From NCBI GenBank assembly GCA_964449895.1, contig CAYVBY010000002.1, positions 41,119-105,118 of the forward strand: a DNA stretch of 64,000 nucleotides. The letters are read 5' to 3'. Under the pieces are notes generated by a model that made no database searches, was not told where the DNA came from, and saw nothing but the letters and a program-made list of their open reading frames with translations. The translations under genes and the position numbers were made by a program. The stretch comes from an uncultured Clostridium sp. Its GTDB lineage: Bacteria; Bacillota; Clostridia; Peptostreptococcales; Peptostreptococcaceae. Shown here one piece after another: positions 57,950 to 63,408 of this stretch (position 1 is the first letter of the stretch; each line of letters starts with the position of its first letter).

Positions 57950-58111
57950 TTACTTATTTTCTATTTTGCTTGAAGGACAAGCATCTTGTGATGAACAGCT
58001 ACTGCAACCACAGCCACAACCACTTTTTCCTTCTTTTGATTTTTTAATAAAATTGCCAAGTGTGGCTACTACTATTAAAATAGCTACTACTGCAATTATA
58101 TAATTAATCAT
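57950..58111 (-). CDS. FeoB-associated Cys-rich membrane protein (53 aa)
   Basis: Not in ORF track. Manual translation MINYIIAVVAILIVVATLGNFIKKSKEGKSGCGCGCSSCSSQDACPSSKIENK; RBS AGGAG; follows feoB. Confidence 0.88.
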   Translation of the reverse strand: MINYIIAVVAILIVVATLGNFIKKSKEGKSGCGCGCSSCSSQDACPSSKIENK

Positions 58112-58133: not shown

Positions 58134-60197
58134 CTAAAATATGATTCCACAAAGCATATATACTATTAATGCTACTATATATGCTACTACCATTTGGAAT
58201 GCTACTGTTATTCCAGTCCATTTCCAAGAACCCATTTCTCTTTTTATAGCACCTACTGCTGCAAAGCAAGGCATACATAATAAGTTAAATGTCATATAAG
58301 CAAATGCTGATGCTTTAGTAAATACTGCTGATATTCCTGGAAGTGCTGCAGCTCCTTCCATAGCTGCTTCTGCTATAGCATCTGTAGCTCCAAATAATAC
58401 ACCAAATGTAGAAACTATATTTTCTTTAGCTATCCATCCAGTTACTACACCTACTGCTGCTCTCCAATCTCCAAATCCAAGTGGTGTAAATATCCAAGCT
58501 ATCATATTACCAAGTGATGCAAGTATTGAATCTTCCATTTCACACATTCCACTGAAGTTGAAATTAGATAAGAACCATATAAGTATTGTTGATGCTAATA
58601 TTATTGTACCTGCTTTTATTGCAAATCCTTTAACTTTTTCCCATGCATGTATTAATACACTTTTAAAAGTTGGTATTCTATATTGAGGTAATTCCATTAT
58701 AAAGTTTGAAGTTTCACCTTTAAATAATGTCTTACTTAATATTAAAGCTGATACTACTGCTACTACTATACCTATCATGTATATAGAATATATTATTAAT
58801 GTTTGATTATATCCAGCAAATAAAGTAGCTGCAAACATTAAGTATATTGGTAATTTAGCTCCACAAGACATAAATGGAGTTATCATCATTGTAAGTTTTC
58901 TGTCTTTTTCACTTTCAAGTGTTCTAGATGCCATAAGTGCTGGTACTGAACAACCATATCCCATTAAAAGTGGTATAAAAGATTTTCCTGATAAACCAAA
59001 TTTTCTAAAGATTCTATCCATAACGAAAGCAACTCTCGCCATATATCCACTGTCTTCTAAGAATGACATTAATAAAAATAATACTAATATTTGTGGTAAG
59101 AATGATACAACTCCTCCTACCCCAGCAAGGATACCATCTCCAACAAGGCTCATTGCCCATTCAGCTGCACCCATTGATGATATAGCTCCCATTATAGTTT
59201 CTGTAAGCGGGCCATCCCAGAAATCACAAACTATACCTTGTAACCATACACCTACACCTAAAGGTCCTTCTCCAAAAGTTATTGCAAATAATGCATACAT
59301 AATTACTAAAAATGCTGGTATTGCCGCAAATCTATTAGTAAGAACCTTATCTATTTTATCTGATTTTGTTTCTTGTCTTTTTCCATTTATGTTAACTTTT
59401 TTTGTAACAGTTTTATTTACTACTTTAGATATAAATTTATATCTTTGATCTGCTATTTCAGCTTCTGTATCACCATTGAAATCTTCATTAGCTTTACTTA
59501 TTATTGAATTTATTTTTTCTTTTTTATTTTCAGGTAATTTTTCAATTACAACTTCATCTTCTTCAAGAATTTTTATAGCTTGCCATAATTCATAAGAGTT
59601 AGAAGTTTTAATTTGACCTTGATTATCATTCTCACTAATTAAGCAAACTAATTTTTCTATATAATTCTTAATTTGTGGAGAAAATACATCTAATTCACTG
59701 TATTTATTTGATGAGGCTATATTTTGAGCTTCTTTCATTAATTCGTCTATACCTTTTCCACTTCTCGCTACTATTGGAACTACTGGTACTCCTAATAATT
59801 GAGAAAGCTTTTTAACATCTATTTTTGTACCTGTTGCTTCAACTTCATCCATCATATTTAGAGCTATTACTGTAGGTATTTTAGTTTCTAATACTTGTAA
59901 AGTTAAATATAAATTTCTTTCTATATTAGTTCCATCTACTATATCTATTAAAACGTCTGGTTTTTCATCTACTATATAATCTCTTGCTACTATTTCTTCT
60001 GCTGAATATGGAGATAAAGAATATATCCCTGGTAAATCTATTATCTCTACTTCTTTATTTTTTTTGTATTTTCCTGTTTTTTGTTCAACTGTAACACCAG
60101 GCCAGTTACCAACATGTTGTTTTGAGCCAGTGATATCATTGAATAATGTTGTTTTCCCGCAGTTTGGATTACCTGCAAGTGCAATTCTTATACCCAT
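58134..60197 (-). CDS. feoB: Ferrous iron transporter B
   Basis: GNPNCGKTT, GNWPGVTVE, DLPGIYSL, LEDSGYMAR, GYGCSVPA, PFMSCGAKLP. Confidence 0.96.
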   Translation of the reverse strand: MGIRIALAGNPNCGKTTLFNDITGSKQHVGNWPGVTVEQKTGKYKKNKEVEIIDLPGIYSLSPYSAEEIVARDYIVDEKPDVLIDIVDGTNIERNLYLTLQVLETKIPTVIALNMMDEVEATGTKIDVKKLSQLLGVPVVPIVARSGKGIDELMKEAQNIASSNKYSELDVFSPQIKNYIEKLVCLISENDNQGQIKTSNSYELWQAIKILEEDEVVIEKLPENKKEKINSIISKANEDFNGDTEAEIADQRYKFISKVVNKTVTKKVNINGKRQETKSDKIDKVLTNRFAAIPAFLVIMYALFAITFGEGPLGVGVWLQGIVCDFWDGPLTETIMGAISSMGAAEWAMSLVGDGILAGVGGVVSFLPQILVLFLLMSFLEDSGYMARVAFVMDRIFRKFGLSGKSFIPLLMGYGCSVPALMASRTLESEKDRKLTMMITPFMSCGAKLPIYLMFAATLFAGYNQTLIIYSIYMIGIVVAVVSALILSKTLFKGETSNFIMELPQYRIPTFKSVLIHAWEKVKGFAIKAGTIILASTILIWFLSNFNFSGMCEMEDSILASLGNMIAWIFTPLGFGDWRAAVGVVTGWIAKENIVSTFGVLFGATDAIAEAAMEGAAALPGISAVFTKASAFAYMTFNLLCMPCFAAVGAIKREMGSWKWTGITVAFQMVVAYIVALIVYMLCGIIF

Positions 60198-60295: not shown

Positions 60296-60520
60296 TTATT
60301 TTAAATTTATATGTTCAGCTTCATCTTTTCTTAAGCTAAGTTCATAACCTCTTAAATTAATTTCTATTGGATCTCCTAAAGGTGCTACCTTTACAACTTC
60401 TACATCTACACCTGGAGTTATTCCCATATCCATTAATCTTTTTCTCACAGGTCCTTTTTTACCAAGATTTAGTACTACTCCACTTTCACCTGGTTTTAAA
60501 TCTTTTAACGTCTTAGTCAT
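60296..60520 (-). CDS. feoA: FeoA
   Basis: RLMDMGITPG, APLGDPI, LSLRKDEA. Confidence 0.93.
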   Translation of the reverse strand: MTKTLKDLKPGESGVVLNLGKKGPVRKRLMDMGITPGVDVEVVKVAPLGDPIEINLRGYELSLRKDEAEHINLK

Positions 60521-60535
60521 GCTATATCCTCCTAA

Positions 60536-60748
60536 TTACTGAACTATTATTTTATTAGCCATTCCTTTATTTAAAGCTATTTTTGAATCTTTTACTATTA
60601 AAATTAATCCACTACTATTTTCTGAAATAACTTCTATCTTTTCTCCAACTATAAATCCTAAATTTTGTAAATGTCTTTTAACATCTTCTTTAGCACGTAT
60701 TTCTCTTATTATCTTTTCTTCTCCTATATTTACCATAGTTAATGACAT
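60536..60748 (-). CDS. feoA: FeoA (second copy)
   Basis: HLQNLGFIVGEKI, IALNKGMANKIIV. Confidence 0.88.
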   Translation of the reverse strand: MSLTMVNIGEEKIIREIRAKEDVKRHLQNLGFIVGEKIEVISENSSGLILIVKDSKIALNKGMANKIIVQ

Positions 60749-60790: not shown

Positions 60791-60870
60791 TGATATTAAT
60801 TATCATTCCTTACATTTATATAATATACATTTTTACTTTTTTTGTCAACAATAATTGATAATAATTATCA
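60791..60870. promoter_or_regulatory. Two Fur boxes flanking the feo promoter
   Basis: TGATAATAATTATCA (60856-60870, perfect 7-1-7) and TGATATTAATTATCA (60791-60805); minus-strand TTGACA (60843-60848)-17-TATTAT between them. Confidence 0.85.
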
Positions 60871-61028
60871 TAAAAATAACAATATTTTTTTTAAATATGA
60901 GAAATCTTAAAATTTAAAAAGTAAACCTAGTGACAAAATCTTTATTTTAAAAATAGCTTTAGATTTAAACTATCTTATTATATAATTGTGTATATAGGAA
61001 AATAGACACTATAGGGGGAATACAAAAA

Positions 61029-61406
61029 ATGCAAAATGGATTAAAAAATAGCAAAATGATGGGATTTACAGATATTAGAGGCTTAAACATTTTAGAAGAA
61101 GCCATAGCAAAATATCCTAATCCTAACTACAAAAATATAGATTTACAAAACAGTTTAGACCAATACGATTTATTTAGAAAAGAAGCTAATTTTGATGAAA
61201 TATATGGTAACTCAGATAGACAAATGGATTTAGACGATGGTAAAGTCCTTCATATATTTGAAGGTCGTAAATTTGAGCTTGCTTTATTTGATTCAAATGA
61301 TGTTGCAATAACTTCTGCTACTATATTCGGCGGAGGATTTAAAACTTTTAAAGACGGCGAACAATTAGAAGAATTATTTGTAGTTCAGGCTATCGAGCTT
61401 AAATAG
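61029..61406 (+). CDS. Hypothetical protein (125 aa)
   Basis: RBS AGGGGG, upstream TTTAGA-17-TATAAT promoter, 12-nt gap to the next gene; no family recognised. Confidence 0.7.
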   Translation: MQNGLKNSKMMGFTDIRGLNILEEAIAKYPNPNYKNIDLQNSLDQYDLFRKEANFDEIYGNSDRQMDLDDGKVLHIFEGRKFELALFDSNDVAITSATIFGGGFKTFKDGEQLEELFVVQAIELK

Positions 61407-61418
61407 GCTGGTGATTAT

Positions 61419-62207
61419 ATGTATAATATAATTGCCTTTGATTTAGATGGAACTATACTGAATTCTGAACCTATAAACTGGAAAAGTCTTCAAAAATGTT
61501 TAGATATTCACTATAATATACAGGTTTCTATGGAAGAACTTTTAAGTTTAACAGGTCAATCAGCTAAAGAGATATTTACACGCTATTGTATAGAAGATTA
61601 TAAAACAGCACAAGTAAAATGGATATATGAATTTGATCAAATATTAGATGAAGTTAAAATTTTTGATGGTATTTTTAATAGTTTTGATAAACTTAAAAAT
61701 TTAGGTGTAAAACTTGCTATAGTAACTTCTAGAAAAAGACATGAACTAGATAAATTAATGGCTAAGTTTAACTTGGAGCCTTATTTTGATTACACAGTAT
61801 CTATTGACGATACAGAAAATCCAAAACCATCTCCAGAACCACTTCAAAAACTTATGGAGCTTGCTAACTGCTCTCATAAAGAAATTTTATTTATAGGTGA
61901 TTCTATATCAGATATAGATTGTGCAAAGAATAATAATACTAAATTTGCTCTTGCATTATGGGGAGCAAATCCTTCACTTAAAAAACATTGTAAAATAATT
62001 TTAGAAAATCCTGATGACATATTCAAAACAGTTATAAACAAAAGTGTGTGTGGAAAAAATAAAATATACTTTAATGATCTTTTAAATGAAGCTAAAATAG
62101 GAACATTTAAAACATATGATGAATTAATCGATTATGTATCACCTAAAACAGAATGTTTTGATTGTTTTCCAAGTGCTTGGGAATTATTAAAATTACATAT
62201 CAATTAA
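61419..62207 (+). CDS. HAD-family phosphatase with C-terminal BFD-like Cys domain
   Basis: DLDGT, VTSR, KPSPEP, IGDSISD; C-terminal C211-x-K-x32-C246-x2-C249. Confidence 0.8.
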   Translation: MYNIIAFDLDGTILNSEPINWKSLQKCLDIHYNIQVSMEELLSLTGQSAKEIFTRYCIEDYKTAQVKWIYEFDQILDEVKIFDGIFNSFDKLKNLGVKLAIVTSRKRHELDKLMAKFNLEPYFDYTVSIDDTENPKPSPEPLQKLMELANCSHKEILFIGDSISDIDCAKNNNTKFALALWGANPSLKKHCKIILENPDDIFKTVINKSVCGKNKIYFNDLLNEAKIGTFKTYDELIDYVSPKTECFDCFPSAWELLKLHIN

Positions 62208-62228: not shown

Positions 62229-62272
62229 AAACCCCAATGGTTGAAATTTTATCCAACTATTGGGGTTATATC
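62229..62272. terminator. Bidirectional terminator between the HAD gene and buk
   Basis: aaccccaat(g)gttg / caac(t)attggggtt. Confidence 0.7.
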
Positions 62273-62337: not shown

Positions 62338-63408
62338 TTATTTTTTAAATCTATTAAATTTCTCTTCACCTCTAATTACTCTAAGTATTCCTAAAGCTAA
62401 AGCCTCCATTTCATATGTTCCTGCTATTACAGAAACTGGCGCTAAGTAGCTAACTCTCTTAGAAACTTCATCTGTAAATCGCTTAGAATGAGCAATTCCA
62501 CCTGTCAGGATAATCTTATCTATTTTCCCTGAAACTACAGGTGCTAAAGATCCTATATCCTTTGAAATTTGCATTACCATAGTATCAAAAATTAATTTAG
62601 CATATTCATCATTTTGCTCTATTTTAGATTCTACATCTCTTATATCATTTGTTCCGAGATAAGCTAGGAGACCTCCCTTGCCTTTTAATTTTGATTGCAT
62701 CTCCTTTTCAGTGAATTTTCCACTGTAACAAAGCTTAACTAATGGTCTAACAGGAACTCCTCCTGAACGTTCTGGAGTTATTCCTCCTTCATCATCCCCT
62801 ACAAAATCAAGAATTTTTCCACCTTTAATTAGATTTGTAGTTATTCCTCCTCCAAGATGAGTTACTATATATGTAGTATCTTCAAGATTTACTTTATCTC
62901 TTTTAGCTTGTTCTATACTAACAGCTCTAGAATTTAATACATGTGTTAAAAAAGGTCTTTCTATTTCAGGTACTCCAGTTATTGTAAATATTTTATCTGG
63001 AATGCCACATCCACAAACAGCATCATATACATAGGAATTGACATTTTCTCCCGCCATCTTAGCTATTTCATATCCTATTACTGGAGCTAAATTTGCAGGG
63101 TGTGGAGCTGGTGAATTTAAAGATGCATTTTTAAATTCTTCATCTACCAAATATGCACCACTTTCTAATTGTCCAATAACACCTCCGCGAGTTGCTATTG
63201 CAGATAAATTTTTTATATCTATATTTATATCTTTTAAATAGTTTAATACTGCTTCTTTTCTAAAATCTAGTTGATCGTTTATAGATTTATATTTTGAAAG
63301 TTCTTCTGCACTGTGATTTAAAGTAAGTGTATTTATTTTCTTTTCTCCATCAAATACTGCCACCTTTGTAGAAGTAGATCCCGGATTTATTACTAATATT
63401 AATTCCAT
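62338..63408 (-). CDS. buk: Butyrate/branched-chain carboxylate kinase family (divergent)
   Basis: INPGSTSTKVAVF, ATRGG, HLGGG, PERSG, GKGGLLAYLGT, LTGGIAHS, GTYEMEAL. Confidence 0.85.
   Translation of the reverse strand: MELILVINPGSTSTKVAVFDGEKKINTLTLNHSAEELSKYKSINDQLDFRKEAVLNYLKDINIDIKNLSAIATRGGVIGQLESGAYLVDEEFKNASLNSPAPHPANLAPVIGYEIAKMAGENVNSYVYDAVCGCGIPDKIFTITGVPEIERPFLTHVLNSRAVSIEQAKRDKVNLEDTTYIVTHLGGGITTNLIKGGKILDFVGDDEGGITPERSGGVPVRPLVKLCYSGKFTEKEMQSKLKGKGGLLAYLGTNDIRDVESKIEQNDEYAKLIFDTMVMQISKDIGSLAPVVSGKIDKIILTGGIAHSKRFTDEVSKRVSYLAPVSVIAGTYEMEALALGILRVIRGEEKFNRFKK

Follow-up and report, generated by a model that had tools for sequence, protein, structure and literature searches.

The window, by which we mean the whole stretch of 64,000 nucleotides that was analysed, encodes a 262-aa protein whose best overall explanation is a HAD-IA phosphatase carrying a fused BFD-type module, cluster-dependent or formerly so. 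Judging from sequence comparisons, we regard this explanation as probable. That the phosphatase is fused to a degenerate BFD-like domain, as had been predicted originally, appears likely from the motif and profile evidence given below. Known parts are combined here in a new domain architecture, HAD-BFD, of very narrow distribution.

Results

Organisation of the locus

The gene of the 262-aa protein follows a gene for an unrecognised 125-aa protein, ORF125. Both lie on the + strand in the same frame, and a Shine-Dalgarno sequence precedes each of them. The original prediction had placed two coupled ORFs at 61029-62207, and this is exactly where we find them, separated by a gap of 12 nt. The features of the locus are as follows.

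57950-58111, opposite strand: FeoB-associated Cys-rich peptide, upstream of ORF125
58134-60197, opposite strand: feoB, upstream of ORF125
60296-60520, opposite strand: second feoA, upstream of ORF125
60536-60748, opposite strand: feoA, upstream of ORF125
60958-60986, + strand: predicted promoter of ORF125 (TTTAGA, 17 nt, TATAAT; consensus scan, 10/12 matches)
61013-61019, + strand: Shine-Dalgarno sequence AGGGGGA of ORF125, read from the sequence and kept in other loci
61029-61406, + strand: ORF125, an acidic, Cys-free orphan protein of 125 aa (ORF list)
61419-62207, + strand: the 262-aa HAD gene, whole ORF (ORF list)
61419-62033, + strand: HAD-IA (C1-cap) phosphatase domain, residues 1-205, motifs I-IV intact (HAD_2 match)
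62034-62204, + strand: C-terminal BFD-like domain, residues 206-262, with C211, K213, C246 and C249
62055-62057, + strand: codon AAA (Lys213), at the site of the second cluster-ligand Cys (codon table, nine loci)
62231-62266, no strand assigned: 13-bp hairpin between the convergent HAD and butyrate kinase genes (RNA fold)
62338-63408, convergent with the HAD gene: butyrate kinase, downstream
Downstream of the HAD gene, convergent: PatB-type C-S lyase

The hairpin at 62231-62266 folds with -22.5 kcal/mol (z -5.15), and none of 200 shuffled sequences was as stable. It is absent from the list of a simple terminator scan; from its fold and its position it is a probable two-way terminator. The HAD gene would be co-transcribed with ORF125 from the promoter of the latter.

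A HAD-IA phosphatase domain

The original prediction described a complete HAD domain with motifs I-IV intact, and profile match and alignment agree on this. Residues 5-178 match Pfam HAD_2 (PF13419) with E 8e-42 and 143.7 bits against a cut-off of 23.8, and the protein also scores above the cut-off of TIGR01549 (HAD-SF-IA-v1; 45.4 versus 23.3). Catalytic motifs I (DxDxT), II (T/S), III (K) and IV (GDxxxD) are all present, and D8, D10, T12, T103/S104, K136, G160-D161 and D165 are invariant or nearly so across 20 aligned sequences. The AlphaFold model of the 262-aa protein is confident (pLDDT 94.9, pTM 0.89; 84-96 in the tail part) and places four helices between motifs I and II, giving a Rossmann-like core with a helical C1 cap. 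A Foldseek search with the full-length model returns HAD-IA phosphatases as best matches (2hdo, 2hsz, the phosphatase domain of MtlD and 3sd7; E 1e-15 to 1e-12). The 50 structure matches listed align to about 207-245 columns of the 262-aa query; all of them are HAD proteins, and none covers the 57-aa tail.

Taken together, these features suggest a catalytically competent small-molecule phosphatase of the HAD-IA class, of PpaX or phosphoglycolate-phosphatase type. The best NCBIfam match is PpaX with 115.9 bits, below its equivalog cut-off of 218, and PGP_bact (phosphoglycolate phosphatase) scores 76.2 bits, below its cut-off of 180. As the protein misses all NCBIfam equivalog cut-offs, its substrate cannot be assigned.

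One ligand position varies and three do not

The motif of the Bfd/NifU-type [2Fe-2S] domain is C-X-C-X32-C-X2-C (PMC11133741). The window tail, of about 57 aa, reads C211-x-K213-x32-C246-x2-C249 and so holds three of the four BFD ligands. This spacing of Cys211, Lys213, Cys246 and Cys249 is precisely the one originally reported, and the AAA codon said to occupy the place of the second Cys is indeed found at 62055-62057. Orthologs with the tail form 13 clusters of 262-264 aa that are 62-97% identical, the window protein being additional to these. They differ at residue 213 as follows.

Residue 213 Cys: 7 clusters (P0005, P0006, P0007, P0010, P0011, P0012, P0013)
Residue 213 Arg: 3 clusters (P0002, P0003, P0004)
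Residue 213 Lys: 2 clusters (P0001, P0008) and the window protein
Residue 213 His: 1 cluster (P0009)

Orthologs with Cys213 carry the full C-x-C-x32-C-x2-C motif. C211, C246 and C249 show no variation in 12 of 12 tails, including the six that have no Cys213. Thus, of the residues whose conservation had been put forward as a check, the three Cys hold in every tail and Lys213 does not, since orthologs may have C, R, K or H there.

Cys213 forms are spread over all clades of the protein tree and include its deepest branch (P0013). One clade contains P0004 (R) as well as P0008 (K) with its sister P0007 (C); the other contains P0003 (R), P0009 (H), P0002 (R), the window protein with P0001 (K), and P0005 with P0006 (C). 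Because the K, R and H forms are scattered over the tree in this way, several independent replacements are needed, every one of them to a basic residue. At the nine loci where codon 213 was read it is TGT or TGC for Cys, CGC for Arg, CAT for His and AAA for Lys, and AAA arises in two separate clades. In the genetic code one base change turns TGY into CGY, and from Arg codons His or Lys can be reached. A codon path from Cys through Arg to Lys or His explains the three-base distance between AAA and TGY that the original prediction had pointed out. The nearest non-Lys relative of the window protein, P0002, has Arg213. Support for Lys213 itself comes from P0001, which is 97% identical, and from P0008, where AAA stands at the equivalent site.

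Nei-Gojobori estimates over nine genes put dN/dS at 0.15 in the tail and 0.19 in the HAD domain. The value for the tail indicates that it is maintained by purifying selection and is not decaying.

A question that these data bear on is whether the tail still depends on a cluster. It could instead be a cluster-less BFD-like relic that acts as a structural extension, in oligomerisation or as a buttress of the HAD core, with its three Cys retained to bind structural Zn or to form a disulfide, or through short divergence time alone. A relic would be in keeping with the repeated loss of one ligand, with the poor suitability of Lys and Arg for Fe-S ligation and with natural orthologs that dispense with the tail; the family is also young, all members being at least 62% identical, so that the invariance of three Cys is only modest evidence. 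However, the residue that replaces Cys213 is always K, R or H and never a random one, the remaining three Cys stay invariant in the very tails that have lost the fourth, and in dN/dS the tail is no higher than the enzyme domain. Weighing both sides, we consider a relic rather unlikely.

Relationship of the tail to BFD domains

The BFD family was recognised because the four-Cys orthologs match it; the window tail alone does not, and matches no Pfam family even at E<=10. Of 12 ortholog tails, the six that have Cys213, and no others, match PF04324 (Fer2_BFD), over model positions 2-48 of 50 and with E values of 4.8e-5 to 0.011 (16.5-24.1 bits). All ortholog tail matches fall under the gathering score of the family, which is 26 bits. 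No family other than PF04324 was matched in Pfam by any of the 12 scanned tails, and a whole-genome search with PF04324 picks out the HAD tail of a sister species (G002) at 22.5 bits. Since every tail score lies below the Pfam cut-off, the HAD-BFD architecture is invisible to standard annotation. Public records label the tail-bearing HAD proteins "HAD family hydrolase" only, and no paper that combines Fer2_BFD with haloacid dehalogenase came up in a literature search.

We aligned the tail profile with hhalign to a profile of 24 canonical BFD domains from the window genome and its relatives. The alignment spans 47 columns with all four Cys columns in register (E 5-6e-5, probability 64-67%). The real tails score 25.1, and 200 column shuffles of the profile reach a mean of 9.0 (sd 2.1) and a maximum of 19.4; given that 0 of 200 attain 25.1, the BFD likeness exceeds chance. 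The reversed tail profile scores 15.8. When Cys is masked to Ala the score is 16.2, about 3.5 sd above the shuffles. Tails with K, R or H alone score 18.5 over the same 47 columns (E 1.8e-3), and tails with Cys alone 28.1. The signal between tail and BFD profiles is real, but it leans heavily on the ligand columns.

The tail-only model (a 60-aa piece, pLDDT 85) has a short strand and then three helices (16-24, 31-38 and 48-59). Foldseek returned nine matches to it, the best with E 1.7 and none of them a Bfd chain, in a search that used a very small domain and had no positive control; the Bfd structures 4e6k, 6e6q, 6e6r and 6e6s are present in the PDB. The tail profile finds nothing among PDB sequences at E<=10. 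Against 1.84 billion representative proteins it recovers its own family only, plus two repeat proteins, P0099 and P0100, which we judged spurious as relatives of the tail. In P0099, a small tandem-repeat protein of 128 aa, CYEDLLDQVRSGKFTLYDEAIEF resembles helix 1-loop-helix 2 of the tail with a library-wide E of 1e-4; this likeness may be due to chance or to a shared helical motif.

The comparison by HHpred and Foldseek that the original prediction had proposed is thus positive in its profile-profile part, which aligns the four ligand columns, and returned no Bfd chain in its structural part. A degenerate BFD-like tail is borne out in sequence by the Cys213 orthologs and by hhalign, and the window tail itself has no Pfam match.

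Might the BFD likeness be convergent or fortuitous, the tail being an unrelated three-helix domain with a Cys-rich metal knuckle? Besides the tail-only Foldseek search without a Bfd match and Pfam scores that are all under the cut-off, the hhalign probability of only 64-67% and the drop from 25.1 to 16.2 once the Cys columns are masked would be in line with such a domain. It is disfavoured by PF04324 being the sole family matched, over nearly the whole model and in 6 of 6 four-Cys tails, by a spacing that is exactly C-x-C-x32-C-x2-C, by the K/R/H-only profile that aligns the same 47 columns, and by a Cys-masked score that still stands well above the shuffled controls. We therefore hold convergence or chance to be improbable and retain a BFD-type module as the preferred description of the tail.

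Tail-less orthologs and distribution

Two orthologs, P0014 and P0015, are 206 aa long and stop at the domain boundary. Up to residue 205, P0015 and the four-Cys ortholog P0010 are 87% identical; the DNA similarity ends there. Each tail-less HAD gene is followed by a terminator hairpin of its own. Because natural orthologs work without it, the tail would be a dispensable, accessory module.

Among nine genomes of the genus, the tail-bearing HAD gene is found in two and the tail-less one in two, and the gene is absent from three; one further genome has a 42%-identical HAD paralog elsewhere only, and one incomplete genome is without a match. Across 185,579 species genomes the tail was found in one other only, an Intestinibacter sp. 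MAG. The HAD-tail fusion is confined to a few Intestinibacter lineages.

The window genome (G000) also has five canonical PF04324 domains, of 38-68 bits, three belonging to ORFs of 61-95 aa and the other two to proteins of about 485 aa (C2:196342-196491, C4:11728-11886, C6:11534-11698, C9:34481-34630 and C15:39966-40130). Its small BFD-like proteins are possible donors of the tail.

At one tail-less locus (L002, 6736-7425) the next gene after the HAD gene, for a PatB-like aminotransferase, encodes a shortened product of 229 aa and has an internal deletion in its DNA relative to the window copy. This suggests a local rearrangement in a variable region.

ORF125 and its neighbours

ORF125 was originally called unrecognised, and it stays so: nothing in Pfam, NCBIfam, PHROGs or the PDB sequences matches it. 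Its 24-30 homologs (profile query included) are all at least 59% identical, and none has a Pfam domain. They show 40 invariant columns, a GGGFK motif, many charged residues and no Cys. Eight of the nine genomes of the genus, all 8 well-covered ones, have the gene, and none of the 103 other genomes of the family does; the profile query likewise brought up no relative outside the genus.

The claim that ORF125 has its own promoter is upheld, in that the site predicted at 60958-60986 is conserved in relatives. The block (TTTAGA or TTTCGA, 17 nt, TATAAT) is kept in nine other loci, whatever the upstream neighbour (L001, L002, L048, L051, L052, L058, L059 and L063 are among the loci compared). In most relatives two unannotated genes, for proteins of about 435 aa and 169 aa without Pfam domains, are divergent from ORF125 and form its conserved upstream neighbours (L001, 3576-5413; also L046, L048, L050-L052 and L058). 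These divergent genes are missing at the position upstream of ORF125 in the window.

The HAD gene lies 12 nt behind ORF125 in every locus that has it. ORF125 occurs without the HAD gene in G004, G006 and G007, and in G008 it precedes a different HAD, of Cof type. An obligate pairing of the two is ruled out by these cases. The conserved gene pair of the original prediction therefore holds in one direction, from HAD gene to ORF125, and fails in the other; the notion of a two-gene system is not supported in view of a partner that is genus-wide, three species that have it without the HAD gene, and HAD proteins that have no tail. ORF125 is an independent genus-specific orphan, behind which the HAD gene appears to have been placed in some lineages.

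The feo operon and its Fur-like boxes

Two Fur-like 7-1-7 boxes lie upstream of feoA, one at 60856-60870 (box 2), an exact match to TGATAATNATTATCA, and one at 60791-60805 with one mismatch. They flank the predicted feoA promoter (-35 at 60848-60843, -10 at 60825-60820). Given that the boxes bracket this promoter, the operon of feoA, feoA, feoB and the FeoB-associated peptide is probably Fur-repressed. The conserved ORF125 promoter, about 90 nt downstream of box 2, contains no Fur-like box. L001 has the same box pair beside feoA, with two unknown genes (169 and 435 aa) between feo and ORF125; in L002 a DUF3793 gene lies between them and the boxes remain with feoA. In L001-L003, where one or two genes intervene, no Fur-like box with up to two mismatches was found before ORF125. 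Because the boxes keep to feoA, Fur regulation of the ORF125-HAD pair was rejected. Box 2 is overlapped by a weaker promoter-like + strand site (60842-60871), so that Fur may have some influence on the pair in the window genome. The originally proposed link to feo and iron status thus finds no support: the adjacency to feoAAB in the window is, as far as gene order tells, a matter of genus synteny plus absence of intervening genes and not of a shared iron regulon.

That ORF125 and HAD-BFD form a two-gene unit tying iron status (feoAAB, Fur) to metabolite dephosphorylation is accordingly very doubtful, since the 12-nt spacing and shared promoter wherever both genes occur, the two boxes in the feoA-ORF125 intergenic region of the window, the promoter-like site over box 2 and the feoA neighbour of the most divergent ORF125 (P0094) are outweighed by an ORF125 that stands alone in three species and beside another HAD type in a fourth, by boxes that in L001, L002 and L003 stay with feoA, by an ORF125 promoter free of them, and by the lack of Cys in ORF125.

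Discussion

In the explanation that we prefer, a small BFD-type [2Fe-2S] ferredoxin module would have become fused to the C-terminus of a HAD phosphatase. The ancestral tail would have had the full C-x-C-x32-C-x2-C motif, most likely with a [2Fe-2S] cluster, and in the window genome and several other lineages the second ligand Cys would have been exchanged independently for Arg, Lys or His. The tail may pack against the HAD core and serve in stabilisation or docking, as a module that depends on a cluster and is labile to oxygen, redox state or iron. For the K, R and H alleles two options can be envisaged: the basic side chain may serve as a non-Cys fourth ligand, by analogy with other clusters, or it may join the two ligand loops without a complete cluster. 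Precedents for a non-Cys fourth ligand are biotin synthase, with three Cys and Arg, and mitoNEET, with three Cys and His. Counted against a BFD-type module here is that an electron carrier is of no obvious use to a non-redox hydrolase.

A bolder claim would be that this is the first HAD phosphatase gated, in activity or stability, by a BFD-type [2Fe-2S] cluster, with the natural Cys/Arg/Lys/His series tuning the lability of the cluster from one gut strain to its close relatives. We offer it as a tentative proposal. If it is true that a BFD domain sits on a non-redox hydrolase, this would point to a sensing or docking role for the fold, and the allelic series would allow non-Cys ligation in it to be studied without further preparation. 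The exchanges of Cys, Arg, Lys and His, the tail-less orthologs and the genomes lacking the gene provide natural controls among related strains. The significance is limited, as the family occurs in no more than a few Intestinibacter lineages that are uncultured or little studied.

How does the protein compare with known systems? Its enzyme part resembles the HAD-IA phosphatases of PpaX and Gph type (2HDO, 2HSZ, 3SD7) in motifs I-IV and in the four-helix C1 cap, with TM up to 0.85 on the target; unlike them, it falls under the equivalog cut-offs and has an extra C-terminal domain of 57 aa. The tail is like Bfd and other Fer2_BFD domains (PF04324; 4E6K, 6E6Q/R/S) in its length of about 50 aa, in the C-x-C-x32-C-x2-C of the four-Cys orthologs and in its predicted layout, in which a short strand precedes three helices and the Cys lie in the first loop and immediately ahead of the last helix. 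It differs from them in scoring below the family cut-off, in having Lys for ligand 2 in the window, and in being fused to a hydrolase, neither free-standing nor within a redox enzyme. The canonical BFD domains of the window genome score 38-68 bits and lie in or beside flavoenzymes, whereas the tails reach at most 24 bits; the short-loop spacing of the tail is that of the small, free-standing type found in this genome. The sites of biotin synthase and mitoNEET are similar in pairing three Cys with a fourth position that is Arg, His or Lys in the natural tail variants, but their folds are unrelated and ligation by a basic residue in the tail is putative. The known role of BFD-like domains is to carry electrons, whether on their own or as part of redox enzymes. 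In GlpA-type glycerol-3-phosphate dehydrogenase, NirB and NifU they are domains within redox enzymes, whereas the tail described here sits on a phosphatase.
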